NCBI GenBank assembly: GCA_016197365.1
Contig: JACPVS010000016.1
Coordinates: 11,909-75,908, forward strand
Direction: 5' to 3'
Source: Mycolicibacterium cosmeticum
Lineage (GTDB): Bacteria > Actinomycetota > Actinomycetes > Mycobacteriales > Mycobacteriaceae
DNA length: 64,000 nt
A program made the position numbers. This document shows positions 54,401 through 60,400 of the stretch, piece after piece. Positions within the stretch are counted from its first letter, which is position 1. Every line of letters starts with the position of its first letter.

Positions 54401-57400
54401 GTTGGAACCCAGGCCCCACAGGTAGAGCACGGCGGTGGCGGTCAGCAGGGCCAGCAGGCCCGGCCGCTCCCAGTGCGCCTGCGTCTCGTCGCCGAGCACC
54501 CACCGGGCGGCCCGGCCGCGACCGGCCGCAGCCGGGGCGGCAGTGGCAGGTCGGGCCTGCCGGGAATCTGTCACAGTCATCTCAATCCTTCTGCGTAGCA
54601 GGGGTTCTAGGCGGCGCGGCGGGGGTGGAAAACCCAGCCGCGCAGCAGTACGAAGCGGACGGCGGTGGACACCAGATTGGCCAGCACCAGGACGGTCAAT
54701 TCGACCAGCTTGTGTGGTTGTTCGACGAAGGCGTGCAGTCCGGCCAACGACCCGCTGGTGATGGCCAGCGCGATACCGAACACGATCAACCCCTCGAACT
54801 GATGCTTGGCCGCACCCGCACCCCCGCGCACCCCGAAGGTGAAGCGGCGATTGGCGGCGGTGTTGGCGACCGCGGTGATCAGCAGTGCCACCAGGTTCGC
54901 GGCCTGGGCGCCGATGGAGCCGTGCAGCGCCATGAACAGCAGCAGGTAGGCGATGGTGGACGCGACGCCGATGGTGCCGAAGCGGACCACCTGGCGCAGC
55001 AGCGAGCGCGGCGCCGCCGCACGGCGTGAACCCAGTTGGGCGGCAATGGTGTTGATCGGGATGGCACCGTTGGCGAAGCCGCGAAGCAACCGGCCCACCC
55101 CCTTCAGGTCAGCGGTCGCGGTGGCGAGGATGTCCACCCGGCTGTCGGGGTCGTCGACCCAGTCCACCGGAACCTCATGGATGCGCAGGCCGGTCCGCTC
55201 GGCCAGCACCAGCAGCTCGGTGTCGAAGAACCAGCCGGTGTCCTCGACGTAGGGCAGCAGCTCGCGGGCCACGTCGGCACGGATCGCCTTGAATCCGCAC
55301 TGCGCGTCGGAGAAGCCGGCCGCCAGGGTGGATTTCAGGATCAGGTTGTAGCAGCGGGAGATGATCTCGCGCTTGGGGCCACGCACCACCCGGGCGTTGC
55401 GCGACAGCCGGGTGCCGATCGCGAGATCGGAATGTCCGGAGATCAGCGGGGCCACCAGCGGGGCCAGCGCCGCCAGGTCGGTGGACAGGTCGACGTCCAT
55501 GTAGGCCAGCACCGGCGAATCCGAGCGCGACCACACATGGTGCAGCGCGCGGCCGCGGCCCTTCTGCTCGAGGCGCACCACCCGCACATCGTCGAGTTCT
55601 GCGGCCAGCTCGGCGGCGATCAGCGGGGTGTCGTCGACGCTGGCGTTGTCGGCGATGGTGATCCGCACGGGGAACGGGAAGTTCTCCTGCAGGTGCCGGT
55701 GCAGCCGGCGCACCGAGTTGGCCAGCGCGGCCTGTTCGTTGTACACCGGCACCACCACGTCGACCACCGGAACGGCAAGCGAACGGGCGACCTGTACGGC
55801 GTTGGGCCGTGCGGCGAAGGCGATGTCTGTCATGACGTCCATATTTGGCTCGGGGAGTGTGTCGGCCGTTGGCGCAGGCTATGCGAAAGCTATGAATGCA
55901 CGGGCGCGGTCAGGTCGTAGACCGTCACCCCGGCCACCGGCACCGCGGTGTAGTGGCTCTGCACCCAGGATGCGATGTCCGTGGCGTCCCGGCTGCCGCT
56001 GTTCTGGCCGCGCCAATTGCCCATCATCACGCCGTGGATGAAGTAGTGAATCTTCTTGTCCGCCAACAATTGCTGGAATTCCTGCACGGTCGGCGCGGGG
56101 TCGGTGCCGTTGAATCCGCCGACCGCGAGCACGGGCGATCCGGTGGCCAGCTGATAACCGGCGGCGTTGGTGGAGCCGACGGTGGCCGCCACCCACGTGT
56201 AGTCACCGGCGTTGGCGCTCAGTAACGCCGTCAGGGCTGGTTTCGGGGTGGGTGAGTCGAACGGGCCGCCGCTCCAGCCTCGCGCCGGCCCGACCGACGG
56301 GATCGCGCCGCTGTGCGGGCTTGCCGCGGTGGCGATCGAGTAGGCGCCCGGCCCGGCCAGACAGGCCACGACCGCCAGCGCCGCGGCGACACCGGCGACC
56401 GTCCGGGGCAGCCGGCCGGCCACCAGGATGAGCACGCCCGCTGCGATCCCCACCACTGCCACCGCCGCGCGCAGCCACGGCATCCAGTCGGCCTGCCTGC
56501 CCAGCAGCACCGCGGCCAGCACCACGGTGACGATCACCGTGCCGGCCAGGGCCGTCGCGCACCGCAGATCGGACCGCCTGCGCCACAACAGGCTCGCCCC
56601 GATCCCGACGCAGGCGGCGATGGCCGGAGCCAGCGCCACCGTGTAATACGGGTGCAGGATGCCGTTGGCGTAGCTGAACACCGCGGCCGTCACCAGCAGC
56701 CAACCGCCCCACAGGATCAGGGCGGCGCGGGTGGCGTCGGTGCGGGGGGCGCGGCGGGTCAGTATCAGCCCGGCGGCCAGGCAGATCACCGCCGCAGGCA
56801 GCAGCCACGCGATGTGGGTGCCCATTCCGGAACCCAGCAGCCGGTCCCAGCCGACGTCGTGGTTCAGGTTGCCCAGCCCGCCGACCTCGTCGCCGGTCAG
56901 CCGCCCCAGGCCGTTGTAGCCGAGCGCCAGTTCGATGATGCTGTTGTGCTGGGAGCCACCGATATACGGTCGCGCCGAGGCCGGCCACAGCTCGACCAGC
57001 AGCAGATACCAGCCGCCGGCCACCACCATCGCCAGCGCCCCCGCGCCCAGGCGCACGAGCCGGGTGCGCAGCGGAGCCGCCGCACAGATCAGGTACGCCG
57101 CGGCGAAGGCGGGCAGCACCAGGAAGGCCTGCAACATCTTGGCCAGGAAGGCGAATCCGACCGCCGCGCCGACCGCGACCATCCACCAGCGGCTGCTGCC
57201 CGGCTGGCATGCCCGTGTGACACCGTAGGCGCCGGCCACCAGCAGCAACACCAGCAGCGCGTCGGGATTGTTGAACCGGAAGATCAGCGCCGCCGCCGGG
57301 GTCAGTGCCAGCACCGTGCCGGCCAGCAGCGCCGCACCCGGCCCGCTCGCCCTGCGTACCGCCGCGTACAGGACGCCCACCGCCGCTATTCCTTCCAGGG

Positions 57401-60400
57401 CCTGCGGCAGCATCACGCTCCACGGATGTAACCCGAAGAGCCGCACCGAGATATCCATCAGCCACAGCGCGGCGGGCGTCTTGTCGACGGTGATGGCGTT
57501 GGCGGCATCGCTGGACCCGAACAGCATGGCGGTCCAGTCGCTGGCACCGGCTTGCACGGCGGCCGAGTAGAAACTGTTGGCCCAGCCGCTGATCGACAGG
57601 TTCCACAGGTAGAGCACGGCGGTCCCCGCGAGCAGCACGGCCAACGCGGCCCGCTCCCCCACCACGATCCGGCGGGCGGTCGGCACGGGCACTGATACCT
57701 CAGGCAGTACGGCAGTCACCCAGTCGATCCTGGCAAGCCCCGCTACGTGGCGGTTTTGTCGCCGCTGTGCGTTGACTGTGACTCTCCTCGGGGCAAGGTG
57801 ACGACGAACTTGGTGGCCCCCGGCACGCTGTCCAATTCGATGCGCCCACCGTGCGCGCGGATCACCGCCGCCACGATCGCCAGGCCCAGTCCGGTGCTGC
57901 CCATCCGGCGCGACCGGGACGAATCCCCGCGCGCGAACCGTTCGAAGACTTCGGGCTGCAGCCGGGCCGGGATGCCCGGGCCGTCGTCGGCGACGGTCAG
58001 CCGCACCTCCCCGGCGGGCGTCACACCGAGTGAGGTGACCACCGACGTACCCGCCGGCGTGTGTGTACGGGCGTTGGCCAGCAGATTGGCCAGCACCTGG
58101 TGCAGCCGGGCATGGTCGCCGACGGTCAGCACCGGCTCGTCGGGCAGGTCGAGTGACCATTCGTGGTCCGGGCCGGTGGCATGCGCGTCGCTGACGGCAT
58201 CGACCACCAGCTGCGACACATCGACCTGGGTGCGCTCCAGGGGGCGGCCCTCGTCCAGACGGGCCAGCAGCAGCATGTCCTCCACCAGGGTGGTCATCCG
58301 TTGGGCTTCGGACTCCACCCGGCTCACCGCGTGGGCGACGTCGTCGGGCAGGTCGTCGTGCTTGCGCTGCGCGAGTTCGGTATATCCCCGGATCGCGGCC
58401 AGTGGCGTCCGGAGCTCATGGCTGGCGTCCGACACGAATTGGCGCACCCGGGTCTCGCTGGCGTGCCGGGCCGACAGCGCACCGGCGATCCGGTCCAGCA
58501 TCCGGTTGAGCGCCGTCCCCAGCTGGCCCACCTCGGTGTGCACGGTGGCAGGGTCGACAGCCACGATCGCGGTGGGCAGGTTGACCTCTCCGCGGTCCAG
58601 CTCCAGGTCGGCCACATCGCGGGCTGCCGCGGAAAGCCTTGACAGCGGAGCCAATTGGCGCCGGATGATCCAGATGCAGGCGATGATCGCGCCGGCCAGC
58701 GCGATCGCGGCAACGACGCAGAACATCGCCAGCACCCACAGCAGCGTGTCGTCGACGACGGTGGTGGGCAGGCCAACGACGATCACCCGACCGCTACGGT
58801 GCGCATGCAGCGCGAGCACCCGATACGAGCCCAGTCCGTCCAGGTGCACCGCGACCGGTGTGCGGGTGGGCGGCACGGCGGCCAACTGTGCGGCCGCGGT
58901 CGAGCTGATGTCGGCGGTGGCGCCTTCGGAGGTGATCACCCCGGCGTCGAGCGACCCGTCGTGACCGATCACCATGCCGACGGTGCGAATGGCCTGGCCG
59001 GGTGCATTCAGAAACCCGGGACCGGGACCGGCCTCAGGGTCGAACCGGAACGACGGCGGCCCGCCGCGATGCTGCGGGCCATCCATCGGCAGACCCGGCC
59101 CGAACGGGGGCGGCGGCAGATCGACGATGCCCGCGGAACGGCGGCCGGCTTCCAAGAGTTGGGTGTCGAGTTGATGCATGAGGAACCGCTGCAGCGCGAA
59201 CTCGGTCGCGACACCGATGCCGACGCAGAGCAAGGCCAACAACGTGACCTGGGTGACCAGCAGCCGCATGCGCAGCGACCAGGTCCGTGGTGCCAGAACG
59301 CGGCTTCTCACCTCAGCGCGGGGGACGCAGCACGTACCCGGCGCCGCGCAGGGTGTGGATCATCGGCTCGCGGCCACTGTCGATCTTCTTGCGGAGGTAG
59401 GACACATACAGCTCGACGATATTGGACCGGCCACCGAAGTCGTAGCTCCACACGCGGTCCAGGATCTGCGCCTTGCTCAGCACCCGCTTGGCGTTGCGCA
59501 TCATGAACCGCAGCAGCTCGAACTCCGTCGCCGTCAGCGAGATGGGGTCCCCGGCCCGGGTGACCTCGTGGCTGTCCTCGTCGAGCACCAGGTCGCCGAC
59601 CACGATCTGGGCGCCGCCGGCTTCGTTGGCCACGCCGGTGCGGCGCAGCAGCGCGCGCAGCCGCAGCACGACTTCTTCCAGGCTGAACGGTTTGGTCACG
59701 TAGTCGTCGCCGCCGGCGGTGAGGCCGGCGATCCGGTCCTCGACCGAATCCTTGGCCGTCAGCAGCAGCAGGGGCAGACCGGGCTGCTGATCGCGCAGCT
59801 TGCGCAGCACGTCCAGGCCGCTCATGTCCGGCAGCATGACGTCGAGCACGACGACGTCCGGCGGGTTCTCCTTGGCGAGTTCGATGGCGCTCGCACCGTC
59901 GCCGGCGGTCTCGATATCCCAGCCCTCATAGCGCAGCGCCATGGATACCAGCTCGGCGAGCACCGGCTCGTCGTCGACGACGAGCACGTTGATGGGTTTG
60001 CCGTCCGCGCGCCGCATCACCACACGCGACGGATCTGCGTCCGCCGCAGCCCTGTTGTTAGGCACCGATCCGTGAGACATCCCGTTTGCCTGCCCATTCG
60101 CCAGCCCATTGGTCACCGTAGTCACGTCGTTCATTATTCAAACAAGTAGTAGGCAGGCACTGTGGCGTTCCTATGCGAAACCTATGAATGTGTCGGGTTC
60201 TGTCCACCACGTCGCGCCTCACAGCCTGCGCATAGCGGAAGCGGCCACAGTGTTGGTCATGAGCGATGACCAACAGACGTGGGGCCAACCTCAGGACAGT
60301 TCCTGGGGCAGGCGCGAGACCATCGCCGCGATCGGGGTGGCCGTCGTGATCGGCGTCCTGGGCGGCGGGGCCGTCTACGCGGCGACCGACGGCGGCGGCC

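Follow-up and report, generated by a model that had tools for sequence, protein, structure and literature searches.

Phased direct repeats at predicted leaderless promoters as the probable operator of the response regulator TcrX in Mycolicibacterium cosmeticum

Background

The pho box of Escherichia coli, the binding site of the OmpR/PhoB-family regulator PhoB, consists of two 7-bp direct repeats with a period of 11 bp, which lie 10 bp upstream of the -10 element and replace the -35 element. In enterobacteria, the two-component systems PmrAB and PhoPQ control the ArnC-ArnT modification of lipid A, and O-antigen is glucosylated by Gtr systems (GtrA/GtrB/Gtr-type). Here, a stretch of 64,000 nucleotides (nt) from Mycolicibacterium cosmeticum (assembly GCA_016197365.1, contig JACPVS010000016.1, positions 11,909 to 75,908 of the forward strand), referred to as the window and numbered from its first letter, was analysed to characterise a set of CAYAG direct repeats found upstream of the response regulator gene tcrX, of two glycosyltransferase (GT) genes and of a gene divergent from tcrX. 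An earlier note on the window had proposed that these repeats form a box through which TcrX regulates its own gene and envelope glycosylation, and our analysis makes it probable, with good confidence, that they are the operator of TcrX.

In Mycobacterium tuberculosis, TcrXY was described as an acid sensor needed for persistence: TcrX receives its phosphate from TcrY, binds its own promoter more strongly when phosphorylated and regulates itself positively through this promoter region, and induction by acid depends on TcrXY (PMC10883919). The autoregulatory site was described as 'inverted repeats' by Bhattacharya and Das 2011, and as a "perfect 7-bp mirror repeat" with the two required parts BS1 and BS2 by Stupar et al. 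2024 (PMC10883919). The same authors found TcrX to bind the Rv3706c and Rv3705A promoters, which were said to be motif-less, gave no consensus and called the mechanism atypical (PMC10883919). For PhoP, another response regulator, binding as a tandem dimer to TCACAGC-N4-TCACAGC was described (PDB 5ED4; PMC4832192).

Promoter geometry in the window

The gene tcrX (59313-60125, minus strand) encodes an OmpR/PhoB-family response regulator with the Pfam domains Response_reg and Trans_reg_C (PF00072, PF00486), and the gene of the cognate sensor histidine kinase, tcrY (57743-59311, minus strand; HAMP, HisKA and HATPase_c domains), is located directly downstream. Further along the same strand are GT39-B (55890-57719), a GT-C fold glycosyltransferase with PMT_2 and YkcB_C domains, and GT2 (54607-55833), a fusion of a polyprenyl-phosphate sugar synthase with a GtrA-type membrane domain (Pfam Glycos_transf_2 and GtrA_DPMS_TM). 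Repeats were found before tcrX, GT39-B and GT2 and, on the plus strand, before the divergent gene (60259-60759).

The tcrX array (60149-60186, minus strand) is composed of CATAG at 60186-60182, CATAG at 60175-60171, CACAG at 60164-60160 and a weak fourth copy, CCTAC at 60153-60149, all in 11-bp phase, and is followed by the -10 hexamer AATAAT (60133-60138), 7 nt and the predicted leaderless GTG at 60125. The GT39-B array (57743-57780, minus strand), borne by the 3' tail of tcrY, comprises CACAG at 57780-57776, CACAG at 57769-57765, a weak CAAAA at 57758-57754 and a weak CGTAG at 57747-57743, which contains the tcrY stop codon; the hexamer CAGGAT (57727-57732), 7 nt and the predicted leaderless GTG at 57719 follow. 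Before GT2, the array (55857-55894, minus strand) is made of CATAG at 55894-55890, which contains the GT39-B stop codon, CATAG at 55883-55879, a weak CCAAC at 55872-55868 and a weak CACAC at 55861-55857, with the hexamer AAATAT (55841-55846), 7 nt and the predicted leaderless ATG at 55833 downstream. The divergent promoter (60220-60251, plus strand) has CACAG at 60220-60224, CATAG at 60231-60235, 10 nt, the -10-like CACAGT at 60246-60251 and then 7 nt to the predicted leaderless ATG at 60259.

On re-reading, every coordinate that the earlier note had given for the repeats, hexamers and starts of the four promoters was correct, and its repeat distances to the -10 were exact (33 and 44 nt, with a third repeat at 22 for tcrX; 11 and 22 nt for the divergent gene). 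Its placing of an OmpR/PhoB-type regulator beside 11-bp-phased direct repeats also held, with receiver and winged-helix domains in TcrX and an 11-bp repeat period at all four promoters. In per-position profiles, the array offsets 22-26 and 33-37, which were unused for selection, were conserved in every promoter class as well. Relative to its predicted start, each promoter is thus an array of four phased half-site positions at about -61, -50, -39 and -28, ending 10 nt before the -10, and the two geometries noticed earlier, one for the minus-strand promoters and one for the divergent gene, become a single one. The strong positions are 1-3 at tcrX, 1-2 at GT39-B and GT2, and 3-4 at the divergent gene.

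Searching for CAYAG-N6-CAYAG gave five matches in the window against 0.21 expected, and none of 100 shuffles reached five, in agreement with the earlier judgement that a common geometry was unlikely by chance. The complete 5.5-Mb genome holds 24 matches, five of them within the 4.4-kb stretch described here, and the extended form TCAYAG-N4-CGCAYAG occurs four times genome-wide, every time at the tcrX locus. A genome-wide scan for the geometry, which the note had suggested, was run as box, N32, xANNNT, N6-7, RTG and returned four matches (about 0.045 expected), three at the tcrX locus and the fourth at the phoP orthologue's own promoter; a relaxed scan returned nine matches in the genome and none in the reversed genome. 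One-mismatch candidates were seen at C25:54091 and C6:174533. A generic sigma-70 scan of the region found no -35/-10 consensus promoter. The window hexamers, of the form xANNNT, keep the A at position 2 and the T at position 6 of the leaderless-type TANNNT, and stand 6-7 nt before ATG or GTG.

Conservation in mycobacteria and other Actinomycetota

The consensus of 21 mycobacterial tcrX promoters is TTCACAGC-nngcR-CATAG-N6-CAYAG, with the triple repeat, the -10 and the start common to all. Twelve of the tcrX promoters, M. tuberculosis included, read TT-CAYAG-N6-CAYAG-N6-CAYRG, 20-21 nt, xATAAT or xATACT, 6-7 nt and ATG or GTG. The leaderless layout put forward for tcrX was borne out in 11 of 12 orthologues, where the start codon 6-7 nt past the -10 is in frame and no stop intervenes, and the tails between this codon and the conserved MRRADG vary from 12 to 39 codons and differ in sequence among the 12. 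A start that stays in frame despite such variable N-terminal tails is a signature of translation from a leaderless start.

Among 20 longer loci of the same genus, the tcrX box is present in 19 and GT genes follow tcrY in 12, all 12 with the exact box before GT2. As the repeats are kept upstream of tcrX (19/20) and of GT2 (12/12) and across Actinomycetota, their reading as cis-elements stands. The box in the tcrY 3' tail was found in the window and seven relatives, only where the downstream gene follows at a conserved GTG, and the tcrY tail carried no box in any of the seven relatives without GT genes. In all 13 mycobacterial GT2 promoters, xANNNT occupies offsets 48-53 and the ATG of cATGAC begins at 60/61; the hexamer is in the same place in all eight mycobacterial GT39-B promoters, where GTG takes offset 60/61. 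The GT2 starts open the long reading frame, and the GT39-B GTG does so in six of the eight genomes, the frame being shortened in L098 (274 amino acids) and L100 (140 amino acids). The divergent promoter, CACAG-N6-CAYAK, 10 nt, CAnnnT, 6-7 nt and ATG, was recovered in at least eight same-genus genomes.

Many TcrX orthologues in the databases are annotated with 234 amino acids from MRRADG, which corresponds here to ATG 60017 (region 60017-60134, minus strand). The comparative evidence and the transcription start site (TSS) data of M. tuberculosis, given below, indicate that the true TcrX start is the upstream leaderless codon. Were this so, the annotated TcrX, including the recombinant M. tuberculosis protein used in published electrophoretic mobility shift assays (EMSA), would be short by 12-39 N-terminal residues.

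Beyond mycobacteria, and among the matches listed, the exact box was found beside the regulator or GT genes in 30 of the 38 loci with a regulator at least 61% identical, and in 6 of the 42 loci with more distant paralogues. The box-bearing loci came from Nocardia, Streptomyces, Kitasatospora, Micromonospora, Cellulomonas, Microbacterium, Nocardioides and others. Nine non-mycobacterial GT promoters share the full geometry with ATG at offset 60/61, and Streptomyces, Kitasatospora, Nocardia, Cellulomonas and Micromonospora are the genera in which this geometry was seen. In the Streptomyces/Kitasatospora loci (L017, L022, L023, L011; positions about 9280-9470), the gene order is response regulator, histidine kinase, GT2, GT39, and the Streptomyces-type GT2 promoter has a clear set of four half-sites in phase (CACAG, CACAG, CACAC, GACAG). 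Upstream of their regulator genes, these four loci showed no exact box.

Identity of the regulator and its DNA reading

For comparison with M. tuberculosis, the H37Rv genome was used, recognised by a 100% match to PhoP at 851671-852348 and by its exact agreement with published primers and TSS coordinates. The identification of the window regulator as the TcrX orthologue was upheld, with the best M. tuberculosis match at 4211083-4211796 (minus strand, 84% identical) and the next matches at 63% (trcR region) and 58% (phoP). We take the best match to be Rv3765c, tcrX, and Rv3765c is also the label that these coordinates bear in published TSS tables. The true PhoP orthologue of this genome (91.6%) is on contig C16, the window regulator being only 58% identical to PhoP. 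Of 36 genomes of the same genus, 34 have a TcrX orthologue (79-94% identity), and the orthologues carry names from Mycolicibacterium species.

The closest solved structure to the window TcrX is M. tuberculosis PhoP (277 bits, against 188 for PrrA), and in the PDB alignment the two recognition helices are near-identical. PhoP reads its bases through Asn212, Val213, Glu215, Ser216, Tyr217 and Tyr220 (PMC4832192), and the corresponding residues of the window TcrX are N, I, E, L, Y and Y, five of the six being identical or conservatively replaced. Among the loci fetched, N[IV]VELY.SYLR was present in 28/28 TcrX-type regulators and N[IV]VESY.SYLR in 9/9 PhoP orthologues. By these alignments TcrX is a close paralogue of mycobacterial PhoP, and the TcrX half-site resembles the PhoP box because the base-reading residues are common to both, Ser216 to Leu excepted. 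Half-site 1 is TTCACAGC in most species and matches the PhoP consensus TCACAGC-N4-TCACAGC. The PhoP and TcrX boxes have the same CACAG core, 11-bp period and direct-repeat orientation, and phoP's own promoter has the same box-to-start geometry as the TcrX promoters. They differ in the middle half-site, which for TcrX is CATAG in 20/21 and is preceded by G or A, not T, and in the targets of the two regulators. A link between the Ser216-to-Leu exchange and the near-invariant T of the middle CATAG is speculation.

The phoP orthologue of this genome (C16:226710-227486) has its own box, TTCACAGGAACCTCACAG, with the same box, -10 and start spacing, from which a leaderless phoP is predicted.

The promoters of Mycobacterium tuberculosis

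The M. tuberculosis tcrX promoter reads TTTCATAGcgcgcACATAGgatccGCATGG, 20 nt, GATACT, tgacgct and GTG. The leaderless start predicted from this is the GTG at 4211820, and the annotated ATG lies 36 nt further downstream. Shell et al. 2015 report a TSS at 4211820 (minus strand) with G as first base, and Cortes et al. 2013 give an annotated start at 4211784, an alternative start at 4211820 and a TSS at 4211820 at distance 0; the gene label is out of register in the text of Cortes et al. that was used, and the coordinates are unambiguous. The mapped TSS therefore coincides exactly with the predicted leaderless GTG, with GATACT 7 nt before it. The autoregulation of tcrX proposed in the earlier note is published, as positive, for this species (PMC10883919).

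The only 7-bp mirror repeat in the published EMSA probe is TTCATAG ... GATACTT, so that BS1 appears to be half-site 1 (TTCATAG) and BS2 the -10 hexamer (GATACTT). The source data fit this reading: with BS1 scrambled, induction was lost and basal activity kept (3.5 vs 4.05), and with BS2 scrambled, the promoter was abolished (basal 0.6 vs 4.05) (PMC10883919 source data). Other species keep the direct repeats but not the mirror relation: their half-site 1 is TTCACAG, and their -10 reads xATAAT or xATACT. Our model thus concerns the same promoter and protein as the published TcrX site, with BS1 apparently coinciding with half-site 1; unlike the mirror repeat, the direct repeats also account for the Rv3706c promoter.

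This promoter reads TCACAGctgctaCATAAgggacgCATAG, 21 nt, CATCAT, gcgacac and ATG, with the triple repeat and spacing as at tcrX, and its geometry puts the predicted leaderless start on the second ATG, at 4149902. Shell et al. 2015 report a TSS at 4149902 (minus strand) and an N-terminal peptide, SETSETPTPPPHQTPK, scored "LL +1", and Cortes et al. 2013 agree. In the published TcrXY regulon, Rv3706c is the most strongly TcrXY-dependent gene (log2 fold change -2.71). A homologue of Rv3706c/Rv3705A in the window's genome (C30:125251) is preceded by TCACAGctgattCATAT ... CATCAT, 7 nt and ATG. In the M. tuberculosis genome the triple pattern has three exact matches, at tcrX, at Rv3706c and upstream of lpqG. 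The last of these (4062293, plus strand) has no TSS at the predicted distance, is outside the TcrXY regulon and was treated as PhoP-type or chance.

Comparison with chromatin immunoprecipitation sequencing (ChIP-seq) of M. tuberculosis TcrX was also suggested in the earlier note. In the compendium of Minch et al. 2015, MEME gave weak motifs for Rv3765c, which are a version of the box when reverse-complemented (TTCACAGCT-N4-CACAG), and for PhoP a highly significant tCACAG repeat.

Proposed mechanism and alternative explanations

We propose that TcrY phosphorylates TcrX, a step that is acid-activated in M. tuberculosis and presumably so in this species. TcrX would then bind as head-to-tail dimers, probably in tandem, to (T)CAYAG half-sites of 5-7 bp every 11 bp, taking the strong sites first and spreading cooperatively to the weak promoter-proximal ones, up to the position beside the -10. 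There it would recruit RNA polymerase, substituting for contact with a -35 element in the manner of PhoB at pho boxes. From these promoters, which lack a -35 element, transcription would start at the first base of the start codon and give leaderless mRNA. The predicted outputs are tcrXY, by positive autoregulation, the divergent membrane protein, GT39-B and GT2-GtrA/GT39-A, together with a small proline-rich membrane protein homologous to Rv3706c that is encoded elsewhere in the genome. For the GT and divergent promoters, we infer binding and activation by TcrX from their sequence.

The likeness to the pho box is in an array that ends 10 nt before the -10, no -35 consensus and an OmpR/PhoB-family regulator. 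The difference is in the sequence of the half-site, in the four positions of which the strongest is often distal, and in the leaderless mRNAs.

The rival that survives best, though still unlikely, is that TcrX represses the divergent gene and that the intergenic region is a two-way switch. The box of this promoter would cover the -35/spacer region, at about -39 to -24 of the predicted promoter, and binding in the spacer often hinders RNA polymerase. However, a box that ends 10 nt upstream of the -10 is in the classical activating position of the E. coli pho box, and weak half-sites occupy the same positions in the other three promoters, which favours activation.

Less probable than repression is that mainly PhoP, or PhoP together with TcrX, binds the boxes and that the glycosylation genes belong to the PhoP regulon instead of that of TcrX. 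The half-site equals the PhoP consensus, and PhoP contacts its bases through almost the same residues. Box and geometry recur identically at the promoter of the phoP orthologue itself, and a GT2-GtrA paralogue occurs close to phoPR in the genome analysed and, in another Mycobacterium, immediately follows it. Yet the boxes travel with tcrXY, and not with phoPR, in all mycobacteria examined and in genera where the adjacent regulator has the TcrX-type ELY helix, and the regulator at this locus is not the PhoP orthologue, which sits on contig C16. In M. tuberculosis, moreover, TcrX binds both box-bearing promoters, deletion of tcrXY loses induction with phoPR intact, and the TcrX and PhoP regulons overlap by only about 2%.

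A similarly low probability is given to the view that the internal boxes are not promoters, with GT39-B, GT2 and GT39-A being read through from tcrX and the repeats serving as landing sites or roadblocks or being relics. No minus-strand terminator was found between the genes of the region, one subclade (L110, L111, L113) has no box where tcrY adjoins GT39-B, and the hexamers CAGGAT and AAATAT are weak. Relics would not, however, keep the hexamer at 48-53 and the start at 60/61 in 13/13 GT2 promoters, 8/8 GT39-B promoters and other genera, and the same geometry gives verified leaderless TSSs at two M. tuberculosis promoters. The last rival denies the repeats any regulatory role and sees in them chance, a recent local duplication or a by-product of coding, as the 19 of 20 nt shared by the tcrX and GT2 boxes of the window and the overlap of two boxes with coding sequence or stop codons could suggest. 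Its probability is practically negligible in view of the enrichment far beyond shuffled controls, the functional data at the orthologous M. tuberculosis site and, above all, the conservation of the repeats across genera while their flanks diverge, by which it is effectively refuted.

Several points weigh against TcrX as the regulator acting through these repeats. In the window, the TSSs at 60125, 57719, 55833 and 60259 are predictions from sequence. The half-site and geometry are common to the phoP promoter, so PhoP could also occupy the sites; with no terminators between the genes, read-through from tcrX may supply part of the GT expression; and as the GT39-B box is part of a coding sequence and keeps a constant frame there, coding and DNA constraint are not fully separable. 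In M. tuberculosis, the Rv3765c ChIP-seq motifs are not statistically significant (E 0.17 and 5.6), the Rv3705A promoter shows no clear box yet binds TcrX in vitro, and the letters of BS1 and BS2 were deduced from the only mirror repeat of the probe. The published EMSA found BS2 to be needed for binding too, which misfits a pure -10 role (PMC10883919). Finally, one relative (L112, from G034) is without the tcrX CAYAG repeats. In this relative the -10 and the leaderless start are kept (CATACT, 8 nt, ATGAC), as if autoregulation had been lost naturally.

For a regulator of the OmpR/PhoB family the mechanism is an ordinary one, and autoregulation of TcrX was already known. The earlier view that the motif was undescribed stood in part: the half-site is that of the published PhoP box (PMC4832192), BS1 appears to equal half-site 1 and a weak version is present in ChIP-seq, and the definition of the operator is new. 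Four elements were found in none of the open-access papers searched, namely a TcrX operator made of phased direct repeats like those of PhoP and fixed in its geometry, the explanation of the Rv3706c promoter by this operator, the new reading of the mirror repeat, and the conserved link of TcrXY to a GT2/GT-C glycosylation module that M. tuberculosis lacks.

The persistence study left the TcrX motif unresolved, and a direct-repeat operator is a simple, testable model, which correctly predicts two mapped leaderless starts and explains the binding of TcrX at the top regulon gene, Rv3706c. Cross-talk with PhoP becomes a question as well. TcrXY appears to be tied to envelope GTs in environmental mycobacteria and in numerous other actinobacteria, which points to its original role.

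More tentatively, and as an idea that we hold to be rather less probable than its contrary, TcrXY could be the ancestral controller of stress-induced envelope glycosylation across Actinomycetota, a counterpart of PmrAB-ArnT in high-G+C Gram-positives. M. tuberculosis would have lost the enzymes and kept the sensor, the operator and the small proline-rich membrane proteins of Rv3706c type, which could be acceptors or partners of the module. The operator would be a PhoP-like phased direct repeat and the mirror repeat a coincidence of half-site 1 with the -10, and sequence alone would then let the direct TcrX regulon of M. tuberculosis be derived anew. The likeness to the PmrAB/PhoPQ-Arn and Gtr systems is that an acid or envelope-stress two-component system is tied to a GT2 synthase, a GT-C transferase and a GtrA-type component; the TcrX-linked proteins differ in not being orthologous to those of enterobacteria.

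Neighbouring genes and additional sites

GT39-A (52631-54580, minus strand), a second GT-C glycosyltransferase with PMT_2 and YkcB_C domains, begins 26 nt after GT2, with which it is probably co-transcribed, and the order GT39B-GT2-GT39A is kept in relatives. By Pfam, the module combines PF00535 and PF04138 in one protein and PF13231 and PF24878 in two, so that by domain all parts of a three-component polyprenyl-phosphate-sugar system (GT2 synthase, GtrA-type membrane domain, GT-C transferase) are present. NCBIfam equivalog scores of these proteins, those for ArnC and ArnT included, were far under the cut-off, and an Rfam search of the region gave nothing above threshold.

The divergent gene encodes a membrane-anchored DUF5666-like protein of 166 amino acids, which had no Pfam or NCBIfam match and for which a search of the M. 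tuberculosis genome found no homologue; its remote homologues are named DUF5666 / PF18914. The protein has a Trp-containing tail in the cytoplasm, a single transmembrane helix, a linker rich in Gly and Pro and, at its C-terminus, a DUF5666-like domain. The gene adjoins tcrX in several mycobacteria, and its product could be an accessory factor of the kinase.

On C16, a GT2-GtrA paralogue 62% identical to the window GT2 is located about 2 kb downstream of phoR. It was considered as a boxed target and rejected, having only a one-mismatch box with the wrong geometry and an opposite-strand HIT-family gene in between. In Mycobacterium sp. AZCC_0083 (L040), GT2 and GT39 genes are found downstream of phoP, and the common ancestor of PhoP and TcrX may already have been linked to GT2/GT39-type enzymes.

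The Rv3705A promoter of M. tuberculosis (L114, 4149150-4150100) is leaderless, with GATATT, 6 nt and ATG and a TSS at 4149480 in Shell et al. 2015. At C30:208651-209136, a one-mismatch box, TTCACAGCTGCTACTCAG, is followed by 10 nt, TAAGGT, 7 nt and GTG before a membrane-anchored Pro/Ala/Thr-rich protein of 148 amino acids, a possible further TcrX target and candidate glycosylation substrate.

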